The notes beneath the pieces were generated by a model that saw only the letters and a list, made by a program, of their open reading frames with translations, ran no database searches and was not told the origin of the DNA. The position numbers and the translations under genes are program-made. This document shows positions 15,986 through 50,900 of a stretch of DNA of 64,000 nucleotides, piece by piece. Location of the stretch: contig NW_026889762.1 of the NCBI RefSeq assembly GCF_033153115.1, positions 5,788,496 through 5,852,495 on the forward strand, given 5' to 3'. Each line of letters opens with the position of its first letter. Position 1 is the stretch's first letter. This DNA is from Saccostrea echinata (lineage: Eukaryota).

Positions 15986-16123
15986 ATGACAACAGAGGGA
16001 GTGTTTGCTGGTTGTCAGGTAGTCCTTGACCTCAGCACCAGTGTAGGTTTCAAGAAGAAACAGGAAGTCAGGAAAACCATCACAAACAATGGTGGAATTA
16101 TCTCGTACATTGTCACAAAAAAG
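15986..16123 (+). CDS. PARP4: PARP4-like exon 1 (start codon; BRCT domain N-part) MTTEGVFAGCQVVLDLSTSVGFKKKQEVRKTITNNGGIISYIVTKK
   Basis: Aligns with human PARP4 N-terminus MVMGIFANCIFCLKVKYLPQQQKKKLQTDIKENGGKFSFSL. Exon opens after acceptor at 15955-56; ATG at 15986; donor AAG|GTAAGA at 16124. Frame stays open upstream of the ATG, so a further 5' exon is possible. Confidence 0.7.
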
Positions 16124-16402
16124 GTAAGAAGCATATTTTTATAATTATTTAAATTAAAATTATTTTTTGCAAGGTTAAAATATCTACACTTGTAAAAGTG
16201 TTGAAGTGGTGTACAAAATTGACTGTTTTAAATGAAGCAGAAAGGTTTAAAAGTTTTTAAAATTCTCAAAAAGTACATGCATGTATTTTGCATATGAATT
16301 GGGTCATTAAGCGGCCCCATTTATAGACAACTGAGAGCCCTGATGAAGGGCCGCTATAAGCTAATAAGATTTACGCATTCTTAATGCCGACTTTTCTTAC
16401 AG

Positions 16403-16601
16403 AGTACCCATGTTGTGCTCAATGATCCAGAAAAAGCTGATGTCAGCTACAAATGTAAAATGGCTGAGAAGTTCCGAATCCCCGTGGTGTCCCTCGATTT
16501 TATTTTTGACTGTGTTGACCAGGGGAAGCAACTCAACACTGACAATTATCTCCTAGTGGGTAAAACGAAGGCCCAGGAATTCAGCAGCGGCAAAATTATG
16601 G
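16403..16601 (+). CDS. PARP4: PARP4-like exon 2 (BRCT domain) STHVVLNDPEKADVSYKCKMAEKFRIPVVSLDFIFDCVDQGKQLNTDNYLLVGKTKAQEFSSGKIMG
   Basis: Matches human THIILDNADVLSQYQLNSIQKNHVHIANPDFIWKSIREKRLLDVKNY. Acceptor ttttcttacAG at 16401-02; donor G|GTAAGG at 16602; ends phase 1. Confidence 0.85.
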
Positions 16602-18187: not shown

Positions 18188-18336
18188 CTGGGAAATCTGG
18201 ACCTAAACCTGAGGGGAAAAAGAAGAAAACGGTGTCTAGTTTTAATCCAAAGTCGGTGAGAGTTTGGCAGGAGAGGGATAAGAACATGCCCCAGTTTGAT
18301 GACGGAAGTGAATTGGCCAAATTTGCCATGCTTCAG
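18188..18336 (+). CDS. PARP4: PARP4-like exon 3 (linker) AGKSGPKPEGKKKKTVSSFNPKSVRVWQERDKNMPQFDDGSELAKFAMLQ
   Basis: Phase-1 entry completes GCT. Poly-pyrimidine acceptor ...ttttctttttgaaaAG. Donor CAG|GTCGGT at 18337. Confidence 0.7.
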
Positions 18337-18564
18337 GTCGGTTATACACTATCGATCATGTCTTTGGTTAAAAAAAATTCCACTGTTGAATATTTTTATG
18401 GTACATTTAGCAAATTTTTAACAAGTACTAAACTGCAAAAAATTGAAAGATCTTTATATGTTTCTGATCATGTTTGATTGATACCAGAGAATTATTATTT
18501 TTAGACAAATTGATCAAAATTGTGAATAATCTAGGATCCTTACAGATATTTATCTGTTTTACAG

Positions 18565-18705
18565 AAATATGACAAGAAAACACAAATAACACAGTTCTGT
18601 GTGTTAGAGATTCATGCATCCAGAAGAGTTATTGCCCTTGACAACAAGGAACAGTCCCCTAGGTTCTGTATTTGCTCTCACCTTGGCAGTGTGCAGGAAG
18701 TACAG
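18565..18705 (+). CDS. PARP4: PARP4-like exon 4 KYDKKTQITQFCVLEIHASRRVIALDNKEQSPRFCICSHLGSVQEVQ
   Basis: Similar to human ...VVVELQCSRDSRDCPFLISSHFLLDDG. Acceptor tatctgttttacAG at 18563-64. Donor CAG|GTGTGT at 18706. An alternative acceptor at 18544-45 is not excluded. Confidence 0.65.
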
Positions 18706-18821
18706 GTGTGTTACATATGAAATAAATGAACATATTGAATGTGACAAAATATTACATTTGAATTTGGCCAATGGGAGACTTTTGGGTACATATATAATCA
18801 TGTATTTTCTTAATTTTCAAG

Positions 18822-18986
18822 GACAAGCCAGGTAGTGGCACTAGAGAGTTCCGTTTTGTACAGACATCGGAGGAAGCCCTGAGTGTGTTTAGTGCCCTCT
18901 ATAAACAGATGACAGAGTCCCCTAATGGCATGACCATCTGTCGGAAACCCCCATGTCAGAATATAGGATCAAAGAAATTCCAAAAG
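18822..18986 (+). CDS. PARP4: PARP4-like exon 5 DKPGSGTREFRFVQTSEEALSVFSALYKQMTESPNGMTICRKPPCQNIGSKKFQK
   Basis: Resembles human RRQFAIKKTSEDASEYFENYIEELKKQGF... Acceptor aattttcaAG at 18820-21; donor AAG|GTAGAG at 18987. Confidence 0.75.
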
Positions 18987-19255
18987 GTAGAGAGAAACAG
19001 GAGATATTGATACAGTATACAATATATCTTTTAACTTTATAGATTGTTACATCATTCCTAACCATATGCATATGATCATGTCATTTTACAAAAATATGAA
19101 ATACAGCTGACCTTATACATGTATGTAGTTGTGAAAATATCAAGCAAACAATTATTACTTTGAGAATGAATTTATTCAGAGTACTATTATGATTTCTAGT
19201 GTAAACTATGTGGTAAATTGAATCTTTGAATTAATTTTTCTTCCATAACATTCAG

Positions 19256-19393
19256 ATGATGGTGGAGTATGGTATGGAGGATACAGAGTTATCTACCCCT
19301 GTGAAGGAGTTGATGCATCACATCTGGCAGGAAGCTGGGGGCGAGATAGAGGAAATCTTAAGTAGCCCACTACAGTCACTGAAACTGGACCAG
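19256..19393 (+). CDS. PARP4: PARP4-like exon 6 MMVEYGMEDTELSTPVKELMHHIWQEAGGEIEEILSSPLQSLKLDQ
   Basis: Matches human LSQEVSDLVEMIWAEALGHLEHMLLKPVNRISLNDVSK. Acceptor cataacattcAG at 19254-55; donor CAG|GTCAGT at 19394. Confidence 0.85.
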
Positions 19394-20320
19394 GTCAGTA
19401 GGTTAGGTCACTGCTATACAGTTACTGAAACTGGACCAGGACAGTAGGTCACTACAATAAATGAAACTGGACCAGGTCAATAGGTCACTACAGTCACTGA
19501 AACTGGACCAGGTCAGTAGGTCACTACAATAAATGAAACTGGACCAGGTCAGTAGGTCACTACAATAAATGAAACTGGATGAGGTCAGTAGGTCACTACA
19601 GTCACTGAAACTGGACCAGGACAGTAGGTCACTACAATAAATGAAACTGGACCAGGTCAATAGGTCACTACAGTCACTGAAACTGGACCAGGTCAGTAGG
19701 TCACTACAAATGAAACTGGACTAGGTCAGTAGGTCACTACAGTCACTGAAACTGGACCAGGTCATTAGGTCACTACAATAAATGAAACTGGACCAGGTCA
19801 ATAGATCACTACAGTCACTGAAACTGGACCAGTTCAGTAGGTCACTACAATAAATGAAACTGGACCAGGTCAGTAGGTCACTACAATAAATGAATCTGGA
19901 CCAGGTAATTGGTCACTTCAGCCACTGAAATGGTATCAGGACAACATGTCACAGCAGTCACTGAAAATGGAATCAGGTGAATAGTTGCTACAATATTGAC
20001 ACTGGACCTGGTCAATACACTCTCTGAAAAATGAATAAGGTCAATAGGCCACTACAGTTGGTGAAACTGGACCAGGTCAAGAGGTCACTAAAGTTACAAG
20101 AAATGGACCAAGTAAGTGAGTCATACAGTCACCAGGAGGTTAGGTCACTATAGTCACTGGACCAGGTCAGTAGGTCACTACAGTCACTGGACCAGGTCAG
20201 TAGGTCACTACAGTCACTGGACCAGGTCAGTAGGTCACTACAGTCACGGGATCATGTCAGTAGGTACCATAAGTACTGAAACTGGACCACACCATTAGCT
20301 CCATACAGTCACTGAAACTG
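19372..20320. repeat. Intronic minisatellite of about 25 copies of a 36-bp unit (two alternating variants in a 180-bp higher-order period), derived from the exon 6 / intron 6 junction
   Basis: Unit tcactaca(gtcactg|ataaatg)aaactggaccag|gtcagtagg. Every unit repeats the last 14-17 nt of exon 6 plus the GTCAGT donor. Lines at 19441 and 19621 are identical (180-bp period). A degenerate 30-bp variant repeats four times at 20150-20260. Confidence 0.9.
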
Positions 20321-20519
20321 TGACAATAGATTTAGTGGTTATTTAATAGTACTCAGTTTCTGTAGTCTTGCAACAATTAGTCAAATATCACTTGACAAAG
20401 CAACAGATATTGTCATAAAGTAAATCTGACATCCCTATTTCTAATTTGAAAATGTTAGGTTAACTTTTCAAGAAATTCCACAGACCAGTTAAATGAAAAA
20501 TAAATGACGTTCATTGTAG

Positions 20520-20687
20520 GTGGAGAAGGCGACGGCCATTTTGTCAGAGATGAAGGAACACCAATCAGATGAGAGTAAGCTACAGAGTCTGTTTACAGAA
20601 TTCTACTCCACCCTCCTCCACAATCCCCAGCACAAGACAATGACCTTCACCATGTCGTGGCTGGCCAGAAAACTGGACCTTTGTCAG
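20520..20687 (+). CDS. PARP4: PARP4-like exon 7 VEKATAILSEMKEHQSDESKLQSLFTEFYSTLLHNPQHKTMTFTMSWLARKLDLCQ
   Basis: Strong match to human AEGILLLVKAALKNGETAEQLQKMMTEFYRLIPHKGTMPKEVNLGLLAKKADLCQ. Acceptor ttcattgtAG at 20518-19; donor CAG|GTACAA at 20688. Confidence 0.9.
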
Positions 20688-21538
20688 GTACAATTTTTAA
20701 TTCAAATTTAATGCTTGTTCTTGATATGGAATTTCATTGTTCCAATATTCTGACGTGGAAGTTATCGATGATTTTGTTCAATATGTAAGAAAAAGACAAC
20801 CATTTACTGTAGAAATTACTTCTGGATGCATGTTGTGAATTGATATGAAACTGATTTGCAGGAAATTTTAAGTATAAAAAATTGCATGGTATTCAGTTTA
20901 CTTGTATATTTTTTAAAGCTGACTTTTATGTTATTTAAGAACATTACATATTTCATTAAATTTATAGGCCAAGATTTAATATATAGATAGTATTAGAAAC
21001 TCACAATAAAACAAGCTAGACATGCAGGGATGCCTGCTAAAGTTTTTAGTCTTGCTAAAAAAGATCTTCTAGCCCGAGAAAATAACAGTGATCATGAGAC
21101 TGGGACCAGGACATCATAACTTTGATCCCAAATCAACTGACTGATGAATTTTGCCCCATGGCTTGTTATCCCCTTGCACTGGGGGGGGGGGGTATAGTTA
21201 TGCAATTGTTTGTGGGTATGTAATGTCCAGTGCAAAAATGGAAGTGACGTAATTTGTATCAAGATCGATGTTGAATGCTGCCTTGATTTATGGATATGCT
21301 CTTTGCAAGGGGATGCTCCACTTTGCAGTATCCTTGTTATACCTTGCTACAGGTGCTATCAGTTGATTAAAGACTGGCTTTTTAAAAAGTGTACATGTAT
21401 TTTGAATATTGGAAATTTTAAAACATCCAGCCTGGCATTGATAAATGCAAAAGTGTTCATCTATGGCAGTGCGTCTCGGGTTGTTAGATGCACTGTTATT
21501 CACACACTGATTTAGATGAATGAATTTTTGTCTTTTAG

Positions 21539-21687
21539 CTGATTAAGGATGTGGTGTCAGTAAGTGAAGGCACAGACTGGTCTACGCGGGGGAACACGGA
21601 GGCCCAGTATAAAGCCCTCCGATGTCAGATATCACACGTCCCCGGGGGTCTCCCAACACCAGTCAAAAATGTCCTCAATCTGAAAGA
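21539..21687 (+). CDS. PARP4: PARP4-like exon 8 LIKDVVSVSEGTDWSTRGNTEAQYKALRCQISHVPGGLPTPVKNVLNLK(D)
   Basis: Matches human LIRDMVNVCETNLSKPNPPSLAKYRALRCKIEHV. Acceptor tttgtcttttAG at 21537-38; donor GA|GTAAGT at 21688; ends phase 2. Confidence 0.9.
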
Positions 21688-22575
21688 GTAAGTACAAACC
21701 TGTGATATAAGTCAGATACAAGTATGCTGTTGAGTCTGATACAGACAGTCAAACATGTCTTTAATACATGTATTAAAGAGTTATATTAGAGGGGCTGCAT
21801 GGTTTCCTGTAACAATAACTAATTACTGGTTAGCTTTGAAAAACAAAAATATCATTCCATATATAATAAACAACATCTAATTTCCTTTGATATAAACTTT
21901 TATCCTTGAATAGTAATAAGAAAGTATCAAAAAGTAACCTAAAAAAATACCAATTACATGTACATGGATAAAGAATTTTGTGGGAATATGTTGAGTATCT
22001 AAAGCAGTTAAAAAAAAAAAAACATAATGTGCCATTACAAAGCACATTTTTAGAGTATTGGATAAATTGTGGCTGTTATATTGCATTCTGAAAATAGAGC
22101 TCAGGGATAATAATAGAACAACCAATAAAGTGAAATAATGTTTTTATAATCAAGAGCTTTCATTGAATCAACCAACAATCAACTGATTTTGGATTATAAG
22201 ATTAGAACAACACTACTAGGGAATTCATATTCAGTTGCATGAGTATGAATTATCAGATCCCAGATATCAATTATACCTGATGCTCTGCATGCCTAGGAAA
22301 TAATGGATATCTTAATATGAAAGTTTAAGAACTCACAGAAATTAGCTTTTAAATTTAGAAAATGTATAGAATTCAGATATCACTTGTACACTGGCTTAGT
22401 GGTCTGTCCTAGCTGAACAGAATATCAAAGGAAGTTAAAACATATCATGTTCAGATTTGATAAACACAGGGGCCTAATACATAAAGATATTGTTATCCAT
22501 GGTGAATAGGGGCTGATTTGTTGTACAGAAAACATCTTCATATTTCATGTACGTATTGCTTTCTCTTTATTTCAG

Positions 22576-22710
22576 TGAAGATAAGTTGAATGTTCAGAAT
22601 GTTTACGCCGTTCATCGTCCTGGAGAAAGTGAGGTGTTCCGGTCAGATTTGGATCATAGACTTCTCTTTCATGCATCCAATGTGGAGAATTTTGTTGGAA
22701 TTCTATCCAG
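22576..22710 (+). CDS. PARP4: PARP4-like exon 9 (PARP catalytic domain start; H of H-Y-E) (D)EDKLNVQNVYAVHRPGESEVFRSDLDHRLLFHASNVENFVGILS(R)
   Basis: Matches human ...LGNVRPLLHGSPVQNIVGILCRGLL. The conserved HGS motif reads HAS here. Acceptor ctctttatttcAG at 22574-75; donor AG|GTAATG at 22711. Confidence 0.9.
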
Positions 22711-22921
22711 GTAATGAATGCTAGGCATTACCTTTGATGCCAATTGATGCATTTTCATTTGTGTAATGTTGATGTATAACATCATTGTGATTGATAGACA
22801 TGGGATAGAGTGAGTCTGCCTGCCATTGATAAAATCATTCTAGATCTTTATTTTGCTTTATCAACAATTTAAACTTAAAAATGAGCCCAGTTATTGACTT
22901 TCTTGAATGGATGTTTAACAG

Positions 22922-23020
22922 AGGTCTCTTGATGCCAAAGGTCGTTGTCGATGACTACGGAGGGAAGAGAACAGACCCAGGAATGCTGGGAAATGGAATT
23001 TATTTTGCCAGTTCTGCCAG
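22922..23020 (+). CDS. PARP4: PARP4-like exon 10 (PARP catalytic) (R)GLLMPKVVVDDYGGKRTDPGMLGNGIYFASSA(R)
   Basis: Matches human RGLLLPKVVEDRGVQRTDVGNLGSGIYFSDSLS. Acceptor gtttaacAG at 22920-21; donor AG|GTCTGT at 23021. Confidence 0.9.
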
Positions 23021-23476
23021 GTCTGTCTATATATAAGTAATGACAACGTCAAATTTATTTAAAAACAAGACATTTTACTTGAAATGATGTATTTAAATTA
23101 AAACCTGTGTTACCTGAAATATTGTGAACAGGTTCAGATCGCAACATTATTATATTTTAATGAGTAAAAATTGAGAAGGCTTTGTTATAGACAGACAAAC
23201 ATAGAATTATAGGGGGAAAAAGGGGAATTTTTAAAATTTTTCACAGTGAAAGTGTATTATTGTTCCTTTTAATTGAAAACAATGAGAACTTGGAACAGTA
23301 AAACAGTAAAAGTTATATAAATTTATCTATTTGCAGTAATGTAGTCTAATGGTTAGACAGATCAACTGCCCAACTTTTGTAAAATAATTTTTTTTTTGTA
23401 CAGTATTAATAATAAAAAAGTGGATAATTATAATGTCTAATACAATTCAATATGTATGTTTTCATCCTTTGTCAAG

Positions 23477-23660
23477 CACAAGCATAAAATACTCAAAGCC
23501 AAGTAAAACCCGGAACACACGAATGATGCTAGTCAATCTGGTGGCACTGGGGAATACAATGGACGTCTACACGTATCAGAGGGACCTGACAGCTCCACCT
23601 AGTGGCTATGACAGTGTTCACGGAGTGGCAGCTTCTGAGGGTGTAGAATCAGACTTTAAG
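23477..23660 (+). CDS. PARP4: PARP4-like exon 11 (PARP catalytic) (S)TSIKYSKPSKTRNTRMMLVNLVALGNTMDVYTYQRDLTAPPSGYDSVHGVAASEGVESDFK
   Basis: Matches human STSIKYSHPGETDGTRLLLICDVALGKCMDLHEKDFSLTEAPPGYDSVHGVSQTASVTTDFE. Acceptor tcctttgtcaAG at 23475-76; donor AAG|GTGAGT at 23661. Confidence 0.9.
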
Positions 23661-24092
23661 GTGAGTTAATTGAGGAGATCTCCATCCCAAATTAATGTAC
23701 TTGAGAAGGGATAAGGATCCTGTTGTGAAGTAATTTTAGTATGTTTCTTGTAATGGAGTGATTGATGTTTCAAGGCATACACAAACAAGTGACAATGGTA
23801 ATTACAATAATGGTACATGTATAACCAAGAAAAAACAGACCCCCCCCCCCCCCAAAGACCCCCTCCCCCCAAACAGCCTAACCCACCCTAACATACCTAG
23901 AAAACATTTTATTGAAAATAGGATGAAGAAAAATAAAATGACAACCAGATATAGCTTGATATTAGGATTGTACAAGTCAATAGTAAGATGACTTCAATAT
24001 GAATATGCACACAATACTGTGAAACTCTGTGCTTGATCTACTGAACTTTGATACTGTGTTCCCCTTGAGTACATTTGTACCTTTTATGATAG

Positions 24093-24234
24093 GATGATGA
24101 GTATGTAGTGTACAATACAAACCAGCTGATGTTGAGTTATTTAGTGGAGTTTACCGTGGGAGGGGAGATACCAGACGAGCTGTCGATGGAGGAGGAGATA
24201 GAAAGGGAGACAACTGACTCAGACACTGATGTTG
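24093..24234 (+). CDS. PARP4: PARP4-like exon 12 (catalytic Glu; end of PARP domain) DDEYVVYNTNQLMLSYLVEFTVGGEIPDELSMEEEIERETTDSDTDV
   Basis: Matches human DDEFVVYKTNQVKMKYIIKFSMPGDQIKDF. Acceptor ccttttatgatAG at 24091-92; donor G|GTTAGT at 24235; ends phase 1. The alternative phase-0 donor gives an immediate stop in the next exon. Confidence 0.85.
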
Positions 24235-24392
24235 GTTAGTTCAATCATTTGAACTATAATTGTTATACTACGTGTATATTAATATACAGAATTTTAATAA
24301 ATATACTGTATGAAAATTTTAATTGTTTCTAAAGGAAAAGTAACTAGTGTATTTTGTATGTGACTGTCCTCATTCATAGAAATCTTTTGATT

Positions 24393-25441
24393 AGGGTGAA
24401 TTCACCATGCGTCCGACACCCTCCTACCTCAACAAGTTCTAGCAATATCGCTACCGATCGAATATCATCATAATAGAGTTTAACATGTAGTATGGGATTA
24501 AAATATAAATTTTTGACTCAGATATATGCAATTTATTGAGAAAATATCACTAAAAACAGATTTTTTTTTTAAATGAGCCAGATTTCACCATGGATCAGAC
24601 AATGCTCTCCATGCATCGAACAAATGGTATTTAATCTGAGAAAATGTCATACCTTTATCTCTGCAGTGCTTTAAAATTAATGATCTGGAAATATTTTTAC
24701 CTTTTATTTAAAATTAACCTTCTAGTTAAATTTGATTGACTACATCGATCCACAAATGTGGGAGATTTTAATTGCATCACATCGTATTAGAAAGGCTTTA
24801 CAATGCGATTTATTTGTCAACTCGTACCTTTGTCTCGTGGGTTATCATACTCTGGTTTGTAAAAATAAATTGAGTCCAATTCTAGATGTCATGTATCGAT
24901 AACTTGTATATTCACAGAAAATTTACAGTTTTTATTTTCTATTTCTGCAAAAAACAACTGTCAGTTGAGTACTATATGAAAATGGAAGTGATTACCCATG
25001 CATCGGAAAGTGTCCGATGCATGGTTAATTTGTGTCCGATGTACAGTGAAATGAATATACTAGTAAAGAACAACTCTGAAAAAAATTATACAAACATAGA
25101 AGTAAAATTTCTTTAAAAGTTCTGTAAATTTGTCAATCATTGACAAATTTCACCTAAGTCCAACTCGTTCCATTTAAGTAAAAGGGCAACTCTAAAAATT
25201 TGCAAAATCATAAAATTCTGGTTATCCCCCTTTGATGATGTAAAATATGACATAACTTCAAGGCCATTCTCAGGGTATTTTTATCACAACATGATAATAA
25301 AAATCGGCATCATTAAAAAGTTTAAATCTTTAGCTTCAAAACAGAAACAAGTAAAAACACGGGAATAATCAGGTTTAAAGAAAGTTTATTGCTTGAAGTT
25401 GTCTGAAGCGAGGTATGTGTCTGATGCATGGTTAACTCACC
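24393..25441. mobile_element. Tc1/mariner-like TIR element copy 2 (inverted relative to copy 1), inside intron 12 of the PARP4-like gene
   Basis: GGGTGAATTCACCATGCGTCCGACACCC ... GGTATGTGTCTGATGCATGGTTAACTCACCC. Collinear reverse complement of 3672-4724; TA flanks on both sides. Confidence 0.75.
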
Positions 25442-25630
25442 CTACATGTATTGAAGAGTATTCAAAATTTCGCACAAAAGTAAAATTTAGAATAAATAGG
25501 GCTGTTCTGAACTGCCTTAGTTCATGTTTGCTTTATTTATGTGTATAAAATTGATTTTGGCAATGATCATGAGTCACATGAATTTGAACCTGCTAAAAAA
25601 CAAAGAAACGGTAATTTGTTTGTTTTGCAG

Positions 25631-25761
25631 ACATCAATGATGTAAAAAATGTGACAGACCCTCTGACAAAGGTCAAGGTCGGACTGGTATCCAATGATGA
25701 CACTCCTGTATCTCTCATAGAAGCCCACATTAGAGCAAAGTTGATTGACCTTGCAGGAGAG
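25631..25761 (+). CDS. PARP4: PARP4-like exon 13 (VIT domain start) (D)INDVKNVTDPLTKVKVGLVSNDDTPVSLIEAHIRAKLIDLAGE
   Basis: Matches human SGNLVPLEDVHIKGRIIDTVAQ. Acceptor ttgttttgcAG at 25629-30; donor GAG|GTAATG at 25762. Confidence 0.8.
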
Positions 25762-26306
25762 GTAATGGAAACCAAAATGGATGAAGTAACATAAAAAATA
25801 ATTGTTGTTGTTTTAATTAATCAGTCAATATCCTTTAACACAAAGACACGTTATAAGCCATCAGAGATATAGAGTCAAAATTTCTTATTTTTCAATCAGA
25901 TTATCCATGTACATTACAATATTATTCTTTGTTGAACATTCTATAGATACATGTAATATTCACCATTTTTTAGTACTGCTTGGTGCCAAATATGACTTAA
26001 ACAATGTATAAACATGAATTTAATTTATCAATAATCAAGTTTGTTCTACTACCATATAAGGGAATTTTCAGTGAGACGCAAATTTAGCGATTTGTCCTTC
26101 AAAATCAGTATTTAATATCGGAAGAAGTAACTTAAGCAATTTTATGGCACATGGAAAGATAATGATAACCTCTAAATAATGGTCAGGAATAAATTGTAAG
26201 CGATTTTTAATTTTAACGATCTCAGTACCCTTACTAAAAAGCCAAATTGAATCCTTGCCAAAATTTTGGCTTATACGGTATGTATTCTTGTGTTTGAATA
26301 CAACAG

Positions 26307-26531
26307 GTTGTAGTTCTACAAGAGTACCACAACAACAGTGACAAAGCTCTGGAAGCCAAGTATGTCTTCCCTCTGGATGATATGGCTGCTGTCTGTGGGT
26401 TTGAGGCCTTCATCAATGGTAAACACATCATAGGGGAGGTGAAAGAGAAAGAGACAGCACATAAAGAATACAAACAGGCCATAAAGGAGGGGCACGGGGC
26501 ATACCTAATGGACCAAGACGAGGAAACTCCA
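26307..26531 (+). CDS. PARP4: PARP4-like exon 14 (VIT domain) VVVLQEYHNNSDKALEAKYVFPLDDMAAVCGFEAFINGKHIIGEVKEKETAHKEYKQAIKEGHGAYLMDQDEETP
   Basis: Near-identical stretch to human VIVFQTYTNKSHVPIEAKYIFPLDDKAAVCGFEAFINGKHIVGEIKEKEEAQQEYLEAVTQGHGAYLMSQDAPD. Acceptor tacaacAG at 26305-06; donor CCA|GTAAGT at 26532. Confidence 0.95.
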
Positions 26532-26942
26532 GTAAGTAAAAATAATGTGGAGAAATCATGAAATGTTTTGGCGTCTTTTCTCTTTTGTAACTGTGAAGCA
26601 AAGCGTTATTGTGAGTTTTTTTTATTACCTAAAAATGCTCCTTATTTACATTGAAAAGTGAGCACTTAACAAGCATTTTTAATGATTTTAATTTCTTGAG
26701 ATTTGCATCTTCATATGTCTTTTAGATTTCTAATCAAGAGCATTATGTTTTCAAAGAATACATTTTATTAAATTTTAAAATTGATTATCTGTTGGTATTA
26801 TGTTAATCTGTATTGTAGCTCAGTTGTATTCATGTAGGTTTACAAGAAAGTGTCATTGGTTAGCTTTACATAAATTCTACACATTATTAAGCTAAACTGC
26901 CTGGGTAAATAAAGTGAGCACTCAGTTTTGATTTCTTATTAG

Positions 26943-27113
26943 GAAGTTTTTACGGTGAGTGTAGGAAACCTTCCCCCTAAGGCTACAGTCATCATTAAGA
27001 TCACCTACGTCACAGAGCTACAGGTCGAGGGGGAACTCATCAACTTCCGTCTCCCTGGCAGCGTGGCGCCATGGAAACAGAAGTATGTCGTTGCTCCAGA
27101 ATTCAAAGACAAG
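26943..27113 (+). CDS. PARP4: PARP4-like exon 15 (VIT domain) EVFTVSVGNLPPKATVIIKITYVTELQVEGELINFRLPGSVAPWKQKYVVAPEFKDK
   Basis: Matches human DVFTVSVGNLPPKAKVLIKITYITELSILGTVGVFFMPATVAPWQQDK. Acceptor tttcttattAG at 26941-42; donor AAG|GTTTGT at 27114. Confidence 0.95.
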
Positions 27114-27437
27114 GTTTGTGCATTTTAAAATAAGGACACAGAACTGAGATTTGCAGTTTTGATATATAAGTTATTAAATTCAGCTATCAGGGGGAAAATG
27201 TTGAATTGTCCAATTTTCTGAAAATGGAGTTATTATAATACAAAAGAAGTTTAAGAAATGATACAGTCTAAAGTGCTCTTTCAAATAGTTTGTGTTTTGA
27301 CATGTTGGTATGACTTGTTCATGTATGATGTGTATGTTAAACAACCCTCAATTGTTTGATCGATGCACAGTGCTAAAATGGAAAGAGGAAAGATTAAGTG
27401 TAAGAAGTAATATGATGATTTCTGTCTTTCATATCAG

Positions 27438-27548
27438 GACTGGGATACAGTTCAAGTCGAGGACACTGACTGCAGTGTACAGGTTTACGTGGACATGCCT
27501 TTTGACATCAGGAGTCTGGAATGTCCAACACACAAAATACTTGTTAAG
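27438..27548 (+). CDS. PARP4: PARP4-like exon 16 DWDTVQVEDTDCSVQVYVDMPFDIRSLECPTHKILVK
   Basis: Resembles human ...FSLTMSIEMPYVIEFIFSDTHELKQK. Acceptor tctttcatatcAG at 27436-37; donor AAG|GTATGA at 27549. Confidence 0.8.
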
Positions 27549-28727
27549 GTATGACCGTCATTATACTTGTCTGGTAAAATTTGATGAAAAGTACAATGTA
27601 CTATTGCATTAGACCTTTGGCATTGTATTGTATTACATTGACAGGGAGTCTGTTCATGACAGGATAACAGGAACTCTTTTTTTTCATAACTTATTTTCTT
27701 CTTATGTTAATCCTGAATTGTACGTTCGTAATAAATACGTTTTACCAAATGTGTTGAAACTAAATTTAGTGTCAATATTAACCCAAGCTTTCTTACGCTT
27801 GGTGTCTGGATCAATGTTCATAGTTAATTACATTTACAAAACTACCCGATTAATTAAGAAATAATTAAGTGAAATTAACTCTTTCACCAGTCTGTCCAAG
27901 CGTATGCTCATCAGTGTATCAATTAATTTTAATTATACGGCGACATTAAGTGTAAATAGGTAATTTTTTTATGTCTACTTTGGATGAATAAAGAAACAAT
28001 TTGAATGCATGCTTTGTTGCTGTGTTAATTTATTTAATATGTGACCAAAAAAAAAAAAAAAAAAAAAAACCAAACGAAACATTGGTAATTTGAATTGACC
28101 ATAAATTAAAAATGAAAGTAGATCAAAATAAACAAGATGGATGCCAAGGGATCTAGAAGATTGAGTTTGAAGAGTATTAAGCTTTATTTAAGTGAATTTA
28201 TTTATAATAAAAACTTGAAACAGTAAGTAAATATTGTGAAATGATATGTCAATTAAAACTTGTATTTCAAATAAACCTAAAAAATCGAAATTATATGTAA
28301 CGTAAGATGTATAATACATCCAATAATTTACACAAACGTCGTATCGTCAGCCGTCCGACATGAATTTCATCCAACTATGGTTATTATAAAAGTCGCTTAT
28401 TATAAAGTTTTGGCCTGACAAATAAACTATGATAATAAACGAATTGTACTGTATTTTGAAACCTCTACTTAGTTAATAGACAAAACATTTTCTTTTTAAC
28501 GAAAGTTTGGTTTGACATTAAAATGCTATAGGTAGTGATGACACCTTAAAAATTTTTGAAATTATACCTTAGGTAAAATATTTTGTGAAAACTTCCACAT
28601 ATGTAGGTAGTAAAAATGTACAGGCATTAACTGCACAAGGTGTTAAGTACATTTTAGGTGGTGTATTTTGTAGAGGACTGCCACACAAGGTGTTTAATAC
28701 ATTATTTTATTTTGTTGCATTTTGTAG

Positions 28728-28862
28728 AGAACTGCCACTAAAGCTACTGTAGAGATGAAAGAGGACCAGACAATAGAAGATGGCTTCCAGTTGCTGATAG
28801 GTCTAGCAGAGATCCACGTGCCGCGAATGTGGGTGGAATCGGACGAAGGCGAAGATTCACAG
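28728..28862 (+). CDS. PARP4: PARP4-like exon 17 RTATKATVEMKEDQTIEDGFQLLIGLAEIHVPRMWVESDEGEDSQ
   Basis: Matches human RTDCKAVISTMEGSSLDSSGFSLHIGLSAAYLPRMWVEKHPEKESE. Acceptor ttgcattttgtAG at 28726-27; donor CAG|GTATTC at 28863. A partial copy of the acceptor plus the first 14 nt lies 50 bp upstream (28650-28665: ttttgtagaggactgccaca). Confidence 0.9.
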
Positions 28863-29217
28863 GTATTCCATAATAGTTGTGTATTTACCTTTTCCTTATT
28901 ATCTCAACTAAAAAAGAATAAGCTTGATAAATGCTTAAAAAGCATATTAAGTACAAGAGCAAGTTAAAGGAATTTAATTAAACTTAGCCTTTGAAATTAA
29001 TTTTTTTGATTTTAAAAGGATTATGTTGTAACAGTTTTTAAAGAGCCAAAATTAGATAAAAGACATATACTTTGTATATGCGTAAAATTTCTTTTTCAGC
29101 AAAGCATATATTAACTGCAAATTCATTCATGATACAATTTTTAAGGAAGTCTCAGATAAACGCACTTTTAGTTCTGAGATTTGAATTAAGATTTTGAATG
29201 CCACTGAGGCTAGACTC

Positions 29218-30087
29218 TCACAAATGTTTTACTGAGTCTAGTTTTCTGTTAGTTAATCACTGCTGGATTGTCAGTGAGTTACTTAACAGGCCTGTGTGCT
29301 GACCTATTACCCTGAGTCTTATTCTCTCTCAGTAAGTCACTGTTGATATGTTTACTGGTTTTATTACAGGCCTGTATGCTGACCTTTTACCCTGAGTCTT
29401 ATTCTCTGTCAGTTATTCACAGTTGATATGTTTACTGGTTTTATTACCAGGCCTGTATGCTGACTTTTTACTCTGAGTCAAATCCTCTGTCAGTTATTCA
29501 CAGTTGATATGTTTACTGGTTTTATTACCAGGCCTGTATGCTGACTTTTTACTCTGAGTCAAATTCTCTGTCAGTTATTCACAGTTGATATGTTTACTGG
29601 TTTTATTACCAGGCCTGTATGCTGACTTTTTACTCTGAGTCAAATCCTCTGTCAGTTATTCACAGTTGATATGTTTACTGGTTTAATTACCAGGCCTGTA
29701 TGCTGACCTTTTACCCTGAGTCTTATTCCCCGTCAGTTATTCACAGTTGATATGTTTACTGGTTTTATTACCAGGCCTGTATGTTGACTTTTTACTCTGA
29801 GTCAAATCCTCTGTCAGTTATTCACTGTTGATATGTTTACTGGTTTTATTACCAGACCTGTATGCTGTCCTTTTAATCTGAGTCAAATCCTCTGTCAGTT
29901 ATTCACTGTTGATATGTTTACTGGTTTTATTACCAGGCCTGTATGCTGACCTTTTAAGTATCTGAGTCTAATCCTCTGTCAGTTATTCACTGTTGATATG
30001 TTTACTGGTTTAATTACCAGGCCTGTATGCTGACCTAATTCTCTGTCAGTTATTCACTGTTGATATGTTTACTGGTTTTATTACCAG
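29218..30087. repeat. Intronic tandem repeat of about 10.5 copies of an 80-82-bp unit that ends exactly at the exon 18 acceptor. Each unit contains the acceptor and the first about 30 nt of exon 18
   Basis: Unit ...gttgatatgtttactggttttattacCAG|GCCTGTATGCTGACCTTTTACCCTGAGtcttattctctgtcagttattcaca. The last unit runs straight into exon 18 (ACMLTFYPE...). Upstream units carry an in-frame TGA (cacagtTGAtatg). Confidence 0.9.
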
Positions 30088-30274
30088 GCCTGTATGCTGA
30101 CCTTTTACCCTGAGTTTGAGGCCGAGGAGGAGTCAGAGGTCGAGGTCATTTTGATGATTGACAGCTCCAACTCCATGAAAGGCTCCGCCCTACAACAAGC
30201 CAAGAAGGCTGCTCTATTGACTCTTCACCTCATGGAGTCCAGTTGGAGATTTAATGTGGTGTCTTTTGGAACAG
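30088..30274 (+). CDS. PARP4: PARP4-like exon 18 (VWA domain start, MIDAS-like DSSNS) ACMLTFYPEFEAEEESEVEVILMIDSSNSMKGSALQQAKKAALLTLHLMESSWRFNVVSFGT
   Basis: Matches human EACMLVFQPDLDVDLPDLASESEVIICLDCSSSMEGVTFLQAKQIALHALSLVGEKQKVNIIQFGTG. Acceptor ttttattaccAG at 30086-87; donor ACAG|GTACAA at 30275; ends phase 1. Confidence 0.9.
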
Positions 30275-30626
30275 GTACAATTTGGGGAGATGAATATACA
30301 TTAAAAAAAACAGTAATAACAAACCTGCCTATAATGAATTCATGCTAACAGCCAAGTGATTTTCATTCCCTGTGATTTTAAAAAATTCTATTATGAACTT
30401 ATCTGGAATTACAAATTAGGCTTGTAACAAAATCAGAATTGTTTGTCTCTGTCACTTTGCTTAAATGTGTTTTTCTCATACTCTGTCTGTTGAGAGACAT
30501 TGTTCCAGATAATATGTGTCTCCATTATCTGTACATATTTTTTTTAATTTTTCAAAAATGAATTATGCAAAAGTACTGTCATCATTGAAATTCAAGTTAT
30601 CTTTTGTTGAATTTTGTATGTTTCAG

Positions 30627-30700
30627 CTTTCCAAGAGCTTTTCCCATCCAGTCAGCCTGCTAGTAAATCCAACATACAGACAGCAAAACAGTTCATACAG
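30627..30700 (+). CDS. PARP4: PARP4-like exon 19 (VWA) (A)FQELFPSSQPASKSNIQTAKQFIQ, followed by a GC donor
   Basis: Matches human YKELFSYPKHITSNTMAAEFIMSA. Acceptor ttgtatgtttcAG at 30625-26. The only donor compatible with the phase-0 start of exon 20 is CAG|GCAAGA at 30701-02 (GC-AG intron); no in-frame GT is available before the TAA at 30722. Confidence 0.7.
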
Positions 30701-30792
30701 GCAAGAAATAAGAATTACTAACACCCAGGATCAGTGAAAATTAATACTGCTTGTATATTTATTATTAATTTTTCTTTTGATTTCTCCTTCAG

Positions 30793-30980
30793 AGGCTGCA
30801 AGCAGATCAGGGTAACACAGAACTTTGCCGACCTTTGAACTCTTACTACCTCCTAAAGCCAGAAAGTTACACCAGAAATATATTCCTCATCTCTGATGGC
30901 CATATTAACAATGAGGAGACTACTCTGTCCAGAATCACCCAAAATTACCAGCACACAAGGGTCTTTACATTAGGGGTCAG
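30793..30980 (+). CDS. PARP4: PARP4-like exon 20 (VWA) RLQADQGNTELCRPLNSYYLLKPESYTRNIFLISDGHINNEETTLSRITQNYQHTRVFTLGV
   Basis: Matches human MGNTDFWKTLRYLSLLYPARGSRNILLVSDGHLQDESLTLQLVKRSRPHTRLFACGIG. Acceptor tttctccttcAG at 30791-92; donor AG|GTAATG at 30981; ends phase 2. Confidence 0.9.
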
Positions 30981-31989
30981 GTAATGTCAGAATATATTTT
31001 ATGAATTTTATGAAAAATAACATCTTCACAATTATCTAGTTAGTAAATTGATTAATTAATTACTTTTTTAAAGGGGGGGGGGGGATTGCAAAAGTTAAAA
31101 TATTACAACATTTCTGACTTAACTAGGCCGAGTCTAATTATTTCTACCCTAGAGTTTTTGATAAATTTTCTTGAATTAATTTTTACTATAATTATACATG
31201 TATTTATTGTTTTAAGATTAAAAAATGAATGTTTACCATCCCGGTTTCTTAGGGGGCCATCTCAAAAGTTGTCAAATTTTACTATAGGACCCTATGGGAA
31301 TTTGTTGGAAAAGCACCATATTACCTCATTTTCCCCATATTTTTTGTATTTCTGCCCTAGAGAGCCAAGAACATGAAAGGTATTGTAAAAAATCACCTAA
31401 TTGTGAAATTTCAAAAAAGTTGACCATCTAGGTTGGTGTAGGAATTATTACAAAGCTTATTTTTCAATGCTCAATGCCTCAAAAATTGTCATATTGTGGT
31501 ATATGTATATATCTGTGCAGATGAATTATCGGCACAGATGAATTATTTTGGTAAAAAATAGCAATGTTTAGGTTGCTAGTATGTTTCTTTTGATGTTCTG
31601 CCAACAGTTCTTAGTCAAATATCCATGGAAATCTTGAATATACAAGCAAGTCATGTGCAATTCTTCAGCGTCATGCATTGCTTTCAAAATCGGAAAACAG
31701 TGACGTCGTTAGAGCCATTTCAGCGTTTTTCCTTAATTATTGTCGTAAAAGCACATTTTCAGACTCGAAGGCGTTATAGATAATGTTAATTTTGTATTAA
31801 AATCACAATATTTGGGAAAGGTGTAATGTCGCACATATGACAGTATGAAATTAAAAAGCTGCGCAAAGTCATGCACACTCGAATTAGACTCGGCCTCATT
31901 AAATTTTATTAGATTTACAGTAACTGTCTACTCTTTTGTTTATAATAAGTATATTAATAATTTTATTACTTTTTTTCTCATTTTTACAG

Positions 31990-32089
31990 CTCTGTGGCTA
32001 ATCATCACATACTGAAAGCTGTTGCCAGAGTAGGAGCAGGGTCATTTGAGTTTTACGACTCCAAGTTCAAATCGAAGTGGGAGGATAAG
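31990..32089 (+). CDS. PARP4: PARP4-like exon 21 (VWA end) (S)SVANHHILKAVARVGAGSFEFYDSKFKSKWEDK
   Basis: Matches human STANRHVLRILSQCGAGVFEYFNAKSKHSWRKQIEDQ. Acceptor ctcatttttacAG at 31988-89; donor AAG|GTAAAC at 32090. Confidence 0.9.
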
Positions 32090-32433
32090 GTAAACATTAC
32101 AGTAAAACTTTGTTATCTCAAACTCAATGGGACCTAGAAAAAACTGTCAGATTTCCAAGAATTCGAGACATCAGGCGAAAAATATTAAAGAATAAGTGGT
32201 TTGGACTTCCAAATCACTTGGACATATCCATGATATTCGGCATATCTGTGTTTGAGATTCCAAAGTTTAACTGTATTTATAAAATTGAAAAAGATAATTT
32301 TTAAATGTCTTTTTGTGGCAGCGATTTTCTTTCTCCCTATTTTTTTCTCCTCTACAATCAACCTTATTGACTTGTGTTAGCTTTTTTCCCTCCTTCTCTG
32401 CAATTAGATCATATATTATTTGTCTGTTTTAAG

Positions 32434-32601
32434 ATCAAGTCCCAGTTACAGAAAGCTGCCCAACCAGTGTTGACCTCTGTGTCTGTTGATTGGGGCCATG
32501 ACGACCAACACCCAGCTCCCATCCAAGCTCCGCAGCAAATAACAGCTCTGTTCAGTGGGTCCCGACAAGTCATCTACGGCTTTGTGGACAATTGTTACAT
32601 G
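32434..32601 (+). CDS. PARP4: PARP4-like exon 22 IKSQLQKAAQPVLTSVSVDWGHDDQHPAPIQAPQQITALFSGSRQVIYGFVDNCYM
   Basis: Matches human MTRLCSPSCHSVSVKWQQLNPDVPEALQAPAQVPSLFLNDRLLVYGFIPHCTQ. Acceptor tctgttttaAG at 32432-33; donor ATG|GTTTGT at 32602. Confidence 0.9.
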
Positions 32602-32833
32602 GTTTGTACTACATGTATTTTACAAAAAGAAGCCATAATATTGGATGGCTTCTTGTGGGAGTTTTCATTAAAAGAATAATTAATTTCAGATTTTTTGGTC
32701 CTACTTATTTGTGAAGATACAGGGACCATTATTTGTGAGATTATGTACCAGTCAAAGAAAAGTGCTTTGTCTAGTGTATATATTTTGTGTTATATTAACA
32801 TTCTAACTTAATGACATTGTGTTACTATTTCAG

Positions 32834-32914
32834 GCAACTCTGAAAGCAGAAGTCGGAGGTCAAGAGATATCAACTGTTGTGTCGACCTCTGACCTTAGTG
32901 TCACAAAGGGCAAG
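32834..32914 (+). CDS. PARP4: PARP4-like exon 23 ATLKAEVGGQEISTVVSTSDLSVTKGK
   Basis: Matches human ATLCALIQEKEFRTMVSTTELQKTTGT. Acceptor ttactatttcAG at 32832-33; donor AAG|GTCAGT at 32915. Confidence 0.85.
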
Positions 32915-33146
32915 GTCAGTTTCACAATTCACAGATAAAAACAAAACCATCCTCAGGCTGATAGGATGCTAGAAATAAACAGAATGTTTGGCTTTGTGCT
33001 ATAAATTACATCAATTCTAAACCCTCAAGAGATTATACTTGTATAAGACAACTTTCTGATGATCTTTTAATTTTCTTCTGAATTCAGCGCAGCTCCCTAT
33101 GTACCATTATGTACAAACATCAGCCATGATTTTGATTTATTTTTAG

Positions 33147-33227
33147 ATGCTGCACAGACTGACTGCGAAAGGGGTGATAAGAGATTGGGAAGATGGAGTT
33201 CTTTCCCCTGACAGGACAGGACATGAG
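33147..33227 (+). CDS. PARP4: PARP4-like exon 24 MLHRLTAKGVIRDWEDGVLSPDRTGHE
   Basis: Matches human MIHKLAARALIRDYEDGILHENETSHE. Acceptor gatttatttttAG at 33145-46; donor GAG|GTAAAA at 33228. Confidence 0.9.
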
Positions 33228-33756
33228 GTAAAAAAAAACAAAAATAGAATTTGTTATATATTGCCATTGGTGAATCATTTTCTAAGCCATAGGTATCTTA
33301 AAATGCTTAAAAACATAATTTTATATATTGCTTTGTAAATTAATGTACAAATAGGTACCAATAGGACCTGATTTGTACGCACTCTTCTATTATCATGTGA
33401 CATTTCTAAAGTACAAAAATGCAAACATCATACATACCGGTACATGCATATGTATGTATGTTTGGATGTTTTACAGTATGTGCAAATTTATGGAAAATAA
33501 GAATTCAGCATTAATATAAAAAGAGTTAAGAATGGAACAGTCCAGCTGGTTAAAATAGGCATTTTATACTGTAATCACATTAATCATTCACCTGTATATT
33601 CAATTCTGATTTTTTAATAAATATTTTATTGTTTAAACAGGTAATTAAGGAATGAATAAATCATATAACTGACAAGTTACATGTATTTGATTTTAATAAT
33701 TATGAAAATGTATTATTCACTACAGTATGTACTAAACTATTTTTTCTGAATATCAG

Positions 33757-33858
33757 GTGAAGAAAATGAATCTGAAGCAGTATATTATAGAGTTGAGTAA
33801 GAAATATACCATAGTCACATCACTCACCAGCTTTGTCGCCATCGAGAAACGAGAAAAG
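33757..33858 (+). CDS. PARP4: PARP4-like exon 25 VKKMNLKQYIIELSKKYTIVTSLTSFVAIEKREK
   Basis: Matches human MKKQTLKSLIIKLSKENSLITQFTSFVAVEKRDE. Acceptor ttttctgaatatcAG at 33755-56; donor AAG|GTAATC at 33859. Confidence 0.9.
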
Positions 33859-34237
33859 GTAATCACTTCTGAAATCTGGTAATTATTACATGTAACATAC
33901 TGACTTTTTAAAGCAAAAATCTCGGATAATTTTCCTTCTAAATTCTATGGATCTCACACCAAGAAGAACAACAGATCAGAACAATCTTTATAGATTATTG
34001 TACATTTTTTCTTTATTATAATTTTACTATATGGTAGTTGAGATTTATTTTACAAACTGAGAACATCAACATTTAAATGTAAGCACTTTTCTTAAATATT
34101 GACTCCTTATACCTTTAAATCTTTAGTATCTAATATTCTACCCATTGAACACCTACAGGCACAAGATTCCACTTTGAAATTTACAATTTATATACATTGT
34201 AACTTTGTAATGGATCTCTGGATTAATTAAATTGCAG

Positions 34238-34333
34238 GATGAGGTTATCCCTGAGGATGCTCCAGATATTTGGGACCTCCTGGAAAATGAGGATGTAGAT
34301 CAGCTAAAGTATTTATCATGGGAAGGAGAGGAG
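34238..34333 (+). CDS. PARP4: PARP4-like exon 26 DEVIPEDAPDIWDLLENEDVDQLKYLSWEGEE
   Basis: Resembles human PFPDIPKVSELIAKEDVDFLPYMSWQGEPQE. Acceptor ttaattaaattgcAG at 34236-37; donor GAG|GTACAT at 34334. Confidence 0.8.
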
Positions 34334-34739
34334 GTACATTGAATAGAACTCACATTAGAAAAAGTCACATGACCATTGAATTCTATTTATACACATTTAT
34401 TATACCTAATTTTATAGATAGTTTGGTAAACTTTTCATTATTTCGAATTTTGTTCATTTTACAACTTTTCTAAATTTTTATGTTTTTAATTCTCTGTTGG
34501 ATGATCATATGATATGGATTCACAAGACCTGCTACATTTCAGACAAATATATTGACTTTTGATTGCTCTGTTTATCTTATAATAGAGAGGGCTCATGGAG
34601 GGTATAACTGATGGACAAGGGGATGCTTGCTTCTCCTAGGCCCTTGATCCCGACTCTGGTGTATTACCAGAGTTCCATGTTTTTATGGCATGTTCACATT
34701 TTGTGTTACATAAAGGATTTATGAGATAAATCACCGATT

Positions 34740-35049
34740 GTTATCTTCACCTCTAGTCATAGGAGTATACAATGGAATGTACATACATGTGATCTATAAC
34801 AACTGTTTCTTATACCAACAGAAAAATAGGAGAAGAATAAAAAATTCATTGTGAAATAAGATATATATTTATATTTTGTTTTCTACCAAGGATGAGAGTT
34901 CACCTCCACTCATAGGAGTATACAATGAAATGTACATACATGTAATCTGTAACAACTGTTTCTTATACCAACTGAAAAAAAGGAGAAAAATAAAAAAAAA
35001 TCCTTGTGAAAGCAGATATATAATTATTTATATTTTGTTTTCTACATAG
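34740..35049. repeat. Tandem duplication (2 x about 150-165 bp) ending at the exon 27 acceptor. The upstream copy carries a pseudo-acceptor plus first 12 nt of exon 27
   Basis: 34860-34892 tattttgttttctaccaAGgatgagagttcacctcc parallels 35030-35066 tattttgttttctacatAGgatgagagttcagagag. The bodies (agtcataggagtatacaatggaatgtacatacatgt... / actcataggagtatacaatgaaatgtacatacatgt...) are also collinear. Confidence 0.85.
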
Positions 35050-35103
35050 GATGAGAGTTCAGAGAGTTCAAGCGATGAAGGAGAAACGGAAGAGTCTTCC
35101 ACG
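35050..35103 (+). CDS. PARP4: Acidic-tail exon 27 DESSESSSDEGETEESST
   Basis: Phase-0 open frame between acceptor ttttctacatAG (35048-49) and donor ACG|GTAAAT (35104); Ser/Glu/Asp-rich. No vertebrate counterpart identified; assignment rests on phase continuity. Confidence 0.55.
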
Positions 35104-50412: not shown

Positions 50413-50900
50413 TTTTTTGTCGGCGCAACTCCTCATAAACGGCTGCACAGAATTTCGCCAAACTTTGTAGATATTTATGACACAATGTGTAGATGTGCTT
50501 ATTACCAGGAAATTCTGATTCCCTTATTTTTCTGGGAATTTTGGCACTTTTCAACTTAGATTTTTGGCCATATCTTGAATATAGAGATGGACAGTTTGTC
50601 AGTGCAACTCCTCTTAAACCGCTGCACAGAATTTTGCCAAACTTTGCAGATATTTAGTACACAATGTGCAGATGTGCATATTGTCAGGAAATTTCAATTC
50701 CATTATTTTTCTCGGAATTCCGGCATTTTTCAACTTAGATTTTTGGCCATGTCTTGTAAATAGAGATCGACAGTTTGTCAGTGCAACTCCTCTTAAACCG
50801 CTGCACAGAATTTGGTCAAACTGCAGATATTTAGTACACAATGTGTAGATATGCATATTACCAGGAAATTCCAATGCCATTATTCTTGCCCTAAGAGTTT
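50413..50900. repeat. About 2.7 copies of an approximately 184-bp tandem repeat, preceded by a TATACCCC...GGGGGTA hairpin motif and a (GTCA)n tract (MITE-like head at 50336-50412)
   Basis: gtcagtgcaactcctcttaaaccgctgcacagaatttngccaaactttgcagatatttagtacacaatgtgcagatgtgcatatt... recurs at about 50413, 50597 and 50781; a degenerate copy at 51236-51360. A diverged homologous array sits at 59610-60000 in the duplicated segment. Confidence 0.8.

Follow-up and report, generated by a model that had tools for sequence, protein, structure and literature searches.

The window, by which we mean the whole 64-kb stretch analysed here, is A+T-rich eukaryotic DNA with a G+C content of 30-39%. Translated open stretches of its + strand match PARP4, the vault poly(ADP-ribose) polymerase. 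The gene was modelled by combining tblastn searches with PARP4 homologues, a chain of splice sites with matching phases, and an in-frame coding sequence, which together delimit the following region.

15986-35103, + strand: homology-supported part of the PARP4 coding region; 26 coding exons, 3570 nt in frame, 1190 aa

In a Pfam analysis, the 1190-aa model has the domain order of PARP4 (BRCT, PARP catalytic, VIT, and VWA). The exons are designated throughout with the labels of an earlier reading of the same DNA (the sequence-only reading), which correspond to the coding-exon count plus one. A PARP4-like protein of Crassostrea gigas is 85-90% identical to the model over exons 13-17, and a partial PARP4-like protein of Saccostrea cucullata is nearly identical over exons 24-26. 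The identity of the introns between the window and S. cucullata is approximately 75-83%, so the DNA belongs to an oyster that is closely related to S. cucullata without being the same species.

Several splice sites of the model deviate from the usual pattern. The intron after exon 19 (30701-30792) appears to be of the GC-AG type (CAG/GCAAGA ... TTCAG/AGG, where the slash marks the junction), and this boundary is needed for Lingula and other PARP4 proteins to align collinearly. AAG rather than YAG is found at four of the 25 modelled acceptors (18188, 18822, 23477, and 32434). Of these, the one at 32434 is anchored by a collinear protein alignment, whereas the other three represent the splice-site choice of the model.

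Downstream of 35103, where exons for the C-terminal major-vault-protein interaction domain of PARP4 would be sought, no conserved exons were found by tblastx against three other PARP4 loci. An extension of the gene past exon 27 via the candidates 35383-35423, 39110-39198, and 40225-40282 was dropped because their phases were inconsistent. Approximately 4 kb of the window (35285-39300) is absent from S. cucullata, in which the counterpart is located at 7100-7170 of contig L001. This segment holds a satellite-bearing element together with the acidic/basic candidate "exons" 35383-35423 and 39110-39198, and these two candidates are doubtful because S. cucullata lacks the segment. Because the gene model could not be extended past exon 27, the junction statistics described below are limited to 15986-35103.

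The satellite in this segment has a 166-bp unit and occupies 36005-38718 (16.5 copies, within a region of 35700-38740), with a (GTCT)n microsatellite before it and poly-C after it. Related arrays of approximately 150-180 bp are located at 45497-45925, 50416-50884, 55135-55582, 57382-57775, and 59713-59997. We take the 166-bp satellite to resemble the satellite-carrying MITE/Helitron-type elements of bivalves. Farther downstream of PARP4, a synaptobrevin-like fragment (47567-47725, + strand) and, approximately 150 nt from it, an actin-like fragment (47874-48095, + strand) were each detected by Pfam with an E-value of approximately 1e-10. An open reading frame of 446 aa on the − strand (6206-7546) has no Pfam match. 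At 9156-9308, there is a 66-bp tandem repeat (2.4 copies) whose unit contains TTGCAG/TCCAGAAAAACGTTTATAAAG/GTGTGT, i.e. acceptor-like and donor-like sites flanking approximately 21 nt.

The boundary between intron 26 and exon 27 is duplicated in tandem, and the features concerned are as follows.

34746-34902, + strand: upstream (decoy) copy of the exon 27 unit; decoy AG at 34889-90, copy of the exon start at 34891-34902 (12 nt)
34899-35061, + strand: downstream copy of the exon 27 unit; authentic AG at 35048-49, first 12 nt of exon 27
35050-35103, + strand: exon 27; 54 nt, phase 0-0, DESSESSSDEGETEESST

The duplication (34746-35061, 153/159 bp) repeats the 3′ end of the intron and 12 nt of exon 27, and its two copies are 91% identical. 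Tandem Repeats Finder (TRF) reports the same interval with a period of 153, 2.0 copies, 87% matches, and a score of 473, whereas the direct-repeat search resolves it into a 99-nt pair (92%, spacing 153) and a 42-nt pair (90%, spacing 159). The decoy motif, CTACCAAG followed by GATGAGAGTTCA, is located at 34883-34902, and the real one, CTACATAG followed by GATGAGAGTTCA, at 35042-35061, with an offset of 159 nt between the two acceptor AGs. Two matches to the motif were reached in none of 100 shuffles. The repeat finder, the repeat pairs, and the shuffles thus all agree with the sequence-only reading, which had described a decoy acceptor with 12 nt of exon sequence upstream of exon 27. The real acceptor is supported by the annotated protein of S. 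cucullata, in which the orthologue of exon 27 (NESSESSGGSSDEGEMEEEYSS) follows exon 26.

The ends of the unit are marked by a short direct repeat. TTCA is present at the left end (34746-49) and within the exon (35058-61), and the copies join at this motif: the TTCA that ends the upstream copy is also the start of the next one. Exon 27 starts with a 9-bp coding repeat, and the exonic TTCA coincides exactly with the end of its first GAGAGTTCA copy. This repeat has two copies here (35053-35070) and three in S. cucullata (L001 6942-6968), suggesting that the start of the exon is prone to slippage and explaining why this acidic, serine-rich exon differs in length between the species. A reading of the 153-bp unit as a non-coding RNA was also considered and rejected. 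The unit has no match in Rfam, and it folds weakly better than its shuffles (z-score −2.2), with no strong fold.

The acceptor of exon 17 is duplicated in a similar manner on a smaller scale.

28634-28684, + strand: upstream unit of the exon 17 duplication; decoy AG at 28672-73, copy of the exon start at 28674-28684 (11 nt)
28685-28738, + strand: downstream unit of the exon 17 duplication; authentic AG at 28726-27, first 11 nt of exon 17
28728-28862, + strand: exon 17; RTATKATVEMKEDQTIEDGFQLLIGLAEIHVPRMWVESDEGEDSQ; residues 250-290 of the C. gigas protein P0006 align from 28728, as in the gene model

The repeated segment (28634-28738) is 54 bp long and consists of 43 nt of intron and 11 nt of exon 17. 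Its two 19-mers, TTTTGTAGAGGACTGCCAC at 28666-28684 and TTTTGTAGAGAACTGCCAC at 28720-28738, have a spacing of 54 nt, and no shuffle contained two matches to the motif. The sequence-only reading had correctly recognized an acceptor copy in front of exon 17, but it placed the decoy at 28650-28665, approximately 15 nt too far to the left, and gave a distance of 60 bp instead of 54. At the same site, another block (20 nt, 90%, spacing 50) aligns collinearly, indicating that the whole unit of approximately 54 bp, and not just the acceptor motif, is repeated approximately 2.2 times. The ends of the unit carry ACTGCAC and ACTGCCAC. The C. gigas PARP4-like protein (...THKILVK/RTATKA...) aligns exactly and without gaps across 27548/28728, which supports the real acceptor.

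Two further junctions of the gene are contained in minisatellites.

19368-20265, + strand: 36-bp minisatellite at exon 5; unit of the last 26 nt of exon 5 and 10 nt of intron with the donor
29232-30115, + strand: 81-bp minisatellite at exon 18; approximately 11 units

The 36-bp array shows higher-order periods of 72/108 bp and a 30-bp variant. Exon 5 ends at 19393, and its real donor junction lies in the first unit of the array. In the 81-bp unit, 53 nt from the intron 3′ end, acceptor included, are followed by 28 nt of exon 18, which encode ACMLTFYPE. The real junction of this exon, whose first base is 30088, lies in the last unit. As both minisatellites also copy junctions, the count of four locally duplicated exon boundaries in one gene, as proposed from the sequence at the outset, is correct.

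All four events consist of head-to-tail units, one of which overlaps the authentic boundary, as fixed by homology. The exon sequence included amounts to 11 nt (exon 17), 12 nt (exon 27), 28 nt (exon 18), and 26 nt (exon 5). No copies of any of the four units were found elsewhere in the window; because they occur only as local arrays, they are not transposon-borne. The unit lengths (36, 54, 81, and 153/159) are all multiples of three, for which the chance probability is 1/81 in a post hoc calculation. The inserted sequences all contain in-frame stops, and no coding explanation for such lengths is apparent.

The contig of S. cucullata (L001) has a single copy of the exon 27 unit, and the sequence to its left is orthologous to that flanking the upstream copy in the window. 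The single copy is interrupted in its middle by an insertion of approximately 640 bp in intron 26 (L001 6265-6905), which belongs to S. cucullata and is not present in the window. The Jukes-Cantor (JC) distance between the two copies in the window is 0.095, compared with 0.21-0.24 to S. cucullata, indicating that the duplication is younger than the split between the two lineages. Very roughly, it would have arisen at approximately 40% of this divergence. The polarised changes number four in the decoy copy and seven in the real copy, a pattern resembling symmetrical neutral decay, with no sign of constraint or of accelerated decay in either copy. Compared with CTACCTAG, the sequence of the outgroup at the acceptor, position −4 is altered in the real copy and position −3 (T to A) in the decoy.

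For exon 18, the comparison was made with three Crassostrea-like Logan contigs (L003-L005), one of which matches the C. gigas peptide SDEGGSQ. All three include the end of exon 17 and exon 18, and the intron 17 between them is complete, measures 321-473 nt, has one acceptor, and shows nothing of the 81-bp array. Thus, the two of the four events that were compared with relatives, namely the exon 27 duplication and the exon 18 array, are lineage-specific as judged from these contigs.

The relatives have local duplications of their own. In intron 25 of S. cucullata, there is a duplication of approximately 250 bp (L001 4896-5265), the second copy of which is partly deleted. Its left end lies approximately 7 nt downstream of the exon 25 donor, near the junction without spanning it, and neither of the two local repeats in L001 spans a junction. 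In three PARP4 loci of other animals (L006-L008, 20 kb each), there are approximately 17 local repeats, of which approximately 1-3 span a junction or lie directly against one, compared with approximately 2.4 expected, as counted by eye with approximate exon ends and a rough expectation. The clearest junction-spanning case among these loci is a 326-bp partial-exon duplication across a donor in L006 (12730-13213, 89% identity), which comprises approximately 145 nt of a VWA exon, the donor, and 13 nt of the intron. In L008, a G+C-rich PARP4 orthologue, a minisatellite of approximately 26 bp of the GTGAGGG type (11334-11786) starts at a donor, and a 22-bp duplication (12877-12915) starts at +2 of another donor. 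Junction copies in the other loci occur at approximately the chance rate, which argues against a property specific to PARP4, and nothing in the sequences compared supports a conserved or gene-specific mechanism.

To evaluate the clustering at junctions, the 64-kb window was scanned for ungapped direct repeats with offsets of 10-400 nt and scores of at least 14 after removal of low-complexity sequence. The scan found 20 local duplications, compared with 0-1 in shuffled windows, and the hits added at lower thresholds were at noise level. The density of local duplications is approximately 1 per 5 kb in the gene and approximately 1 per 6 kb outside it (non-transposon events). Within 15986-35103, there are exactly four events, and all four span an exon junction. 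Self-alignment of the junctions against their own introns, the check suggested by the sequence-only reading, gave the same picture as the scan: 4 of 50 junctions are duplicated, with an own-intron copy at 21/24 or better, and the other 46 reach at most 17/24. In control windows deep in introns and outside the arrays, 0.3-1% are duplicated and 0.3% have a match at 20/24 or better.

The null model is event-based. Founder units of 36, 54, 81, and 153 bp were placed randomly in the array-collapsed gene (17.2 kb, 51 boundaries), which gave per-event probabilities of spanning a junction of approximately 0.06-0.12, 0.11-0.18, 0.19-0.25, and 0.36-0.41, respectively. The expected number of junction-spanning events is therefore 0.7-0.96, compared with the observed four, and the probability that all four span a junction under random placement is 7e-4 to 2e-3, calculated post hoc for one gene. 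If the non-junction repeats at 39109 and 41319 belong to the gene, the value becomes 5e-3 to 1.5e-2. Taken alone, the exon 17 and exon 27 events are unremarkable (p of approximately 0.11-0.18 and 0.37-0.41, respectively). A position-based null, in which duplicated sequence accounts for approximately 12% of the intron positions sampled and 8% of the junctions, was set aside in favor of the event-based one because the arrays themselves are junction copies. The repeats at 4497, 9159, 10431, 41319, 48412, and 49222 were set aside as controls because they lie in regions without an exon map. The earlier claim that the four duplications exceed chance therefore holds nominally over the whole range of 7e-4 to 1.5e-2, but the test is post hoc and its hypothesis came from the same data. 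We regard the clustering as suggestive for this single gene.

The predicted competence of the decoy sites was estimated with a position weight matrix (PWM) built from the 25 acceptors of the gene itself. The scores of decoy and real sites are 3.7 and 4.0 for exon 27, and 9.3 and 6.3 for exon 17. The acceptor copies of exon 18 are identical to the real site (11.0), and seven downstream donor copies in the exon 5 array keep CAG/GTCAGT. The T-to-A change at −3 turns TAG into AAG in the exon 27 decoy, and the possibility that this disabled the site was rejected, because AAG is also present at 4 of the 25 modelled real acceptors and the PWM scores are equal. Use of the exon 27 decoy would add 159 nt and lead to a stop after 49 novel residues, and use of the exon 17 decoy would add 54 nt and lead to a stop after 3 residues. 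All decoys of exons 18 and 5 are likewise predicted to give a premature stop. Because every decoy does so, transcripts using them are expected to be unproductive. As the decoys are not visibly weakened, their silence in normal transcripts is assumed here.

Competing acceptors from local duplication are familiar from NAGNAG tandem acceptors and from experimentally duplicated splice sites, in which proximity and exon context decide between the sites. The NAGNAG sites lie 3 nt apart and give in-frame isoforms, whereas the paired acceptors of the oyster gene are separated by 54 and 159 nt, with stop codons in the sequence that would be inserted.

The closest parallel is a 37-bp minisatellite in intron 7 of human F7, the first unit of which extends across the boundary of exon 7 and intron 7 (2006, PMC1557585). 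The identical downstream pseudo-donors of F7 are functional yet silent, because it is the most upstream site that is chosen (PMC1557585). As in F7, the oyster arrays are head-to-tail, their units carry an exon end with its splice site, and the authentic site is accompanied by identical pseudo-sites. The similarity is greatest for the exon 5 array, in which the authentic donor is also the most upstream unit and the unit is 36 bp instead of 37 bp. In contrast to the donor array of F7, the exon 17 and exon 27 events are two-copy acceptor duplications, and the 81-bp array at exon 18 is an acceptor array with the authentic site most downstream. The silence of the F7 pseudo-sites is an experimental result, whereas the oyster decoys are known here from sequence alone.

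Internal tandem duplications with splice signals are also an established way for introns to arise or splice sites to shift (the proto-splice-site AGGT model), as described by Lehmann et al. 2010 (PMC2891723) and Hellsten et al. 2011 (PMC3265369) and for the potato RdRp gene (PMC4974935). A length that is a multiple of three and nonsense-mediated decay have been named as factors deciding the outcome (PMC2891723). The oyster events resemble these cases in being small intragenic tandem duplications that carry splice signals, with an outcome set by the copy used, the length, and nonsense-mediated decay. In the AGGT model, however, the duplicated segment is exonic and the new intron has the length of the unit, whereas the oyster duplications only lengthen an intron and add decoys. 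The duplicated units contain intron sequence that existed before, and S. cucullata has intron 26, just as the Crassostrea-like contigs have intron 17; because these introns pre-exist in relatives, the oyster cases do not fit intron gain by AGGT duplication. Tandem repeats near splice sites have also been associated with splicing variation in human (spl-TRs; Hamanaka et al. 2023, PMC10078293). These are likewise intronic repeats near junctions that may influence the choice of splice site, but they are mostly short repeats acting via their length and not copies of a junction.

Based on these observations, we consider it probable that the four events arose independently of one another as lineage-specific tandem duplications, each of a short local segment that happened to include a splice junction, and that they are probably neutral. 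Replication slippage or unequal exchange between short direct repeats is the most likely origin of the 36-, 54-, 81-, and 153-bp duplications. In the acceptor cases, the copy adjoining the exon body would keep the frame and stay the functional site, and the upstream copy would remain within the lengthened intron as a pseudo-acceptor. The authentic acceptor is probably favored by its position beside the exon body (exon definition), and in the donor array, the authentic site is probably favored as the first in a 5′-to-3′ choice. We infer that a transcript using a decoy would be unproductive and probably removed by nonsense-mediated decay, and that the duplications, having no dedicated function, would decay neutrally. 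Several observations do not sit easily with this account: the decoys are not visibly weakened; pure neutrality does not predict unit lengths that are all multiples of three; and random placement predicts approximately one junction-spanning event instead of the four of four observed (P of about 7e-4 to 1.5e-2), in a gene whose introns hold almost no local duplicates outside the arrays.

The last of these observations speaks for a junction-proximal mutational hot spot, in which the tandem duplications and minisatellites of this lineage would preferentially be founded, or have their end points, at exon edges. Possible causes are that exon ends form islands of higher G+C content within introns of 68% A+T, polymerase pausing, R-loops, or nucleosome edges. 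The excess over 0.7-1.0 expected events and the deep-intron duplication rate of just 0.3-1% outside the arrays would both follow from such a bias, and the S. cucullata duplication beginning approximately 7 nt from a donor, the L008 arrays that begin at donors or a few nt away from them, and the L006 duplication spanning a donor point in the same direction. However, the statistic is post hoc and comes from a single gene, the number of junction repeats in L006-L008, as judged by eye, is close to the rough expectation, neither of the two repeats in L001 spans a junction, and introns are so short in L007 and L008 that repeats necessarily fall near exons. We therefore regard a hot spot as possible, though rather unlikely. 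If junctions were indeed the founders, approximately 70-80% of the length of introns 5 and 17 would derive from junction arrays. The broader notion that introns in the oyster lineage may grow by amplifying their own junctions, with dozens of decoys tolerated via positional choice of splice sites, appears doubtful to us.

Selection for the decoys themselves, either for unproductive splicing that tunes the dosage of PARP4 or for recruitment of U1/U2AF in exon definition, could explain why many decoys have an intact consensus (the identical exon 18 copies and the seven exon 5 donors) and why all unit lengths are multiples of three. It is nevertheless improbable, because both comparable events are missing in related oysters, the copies of the exon 27 unit decay at similar rates, every decoy yields a stop codon, and the pseudo-sites in the F7 precedent are simply silent. 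An artefact, in which assembly errors in repeats or a wrong gene model would make the junctions unreal, could be suspected most readily at exon 27, which is short, acidic, and of low complexity without deep homology and ends the model at 35103 (with 35285-39300 absent from S. cucullata). This explanation is very improbable: the two-copy duplications have diverged by 9-16%, which collapse or expansion of an assembly does not produce; the boundaries of exons 17 and 18 are set by protein alignments that run collinearly across them; the annotated S. cucullata protein P0095 includes the orthologue of exon 27; and the 26 exons form an open 1190-aa frame with the domain order of PARP4. It is even harder to believe that the units came from a mobile element or satellite family inserted beside the exons. 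The window does contain many satellite arrays of approximately 150-180 bp with (GTCT)n flanks, but unlike the 166-bp array, none of the four units is copied elsewhere in the window, each contains conserved coding sequence of the adjoining exon, and S. cucullata keeps the single-copy ancestral arrangement of the exon 27 unit.

Independent duplication of short local segments thus remains our preferred explanation, and the duplicated acceptors are best described as a correct observation of ordinary biology: recent, lineage-specific duplications that include a junction, of the type known from F7, and probably neutral. If so, their value is practical, in that gene predictors and variant callers can choose the wrong one of several identical splice sites. 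The junction arrays are also natural test cases for the choice of the spliceosome among identical sites, as in human F7. If the clustering at junctions were found genome-wide, it would point to a mutational bias that lengthens introns from their edges, and it would imply a standing load of decoys that nonsense-mediated decay and the positional choice of splice sites hold down.
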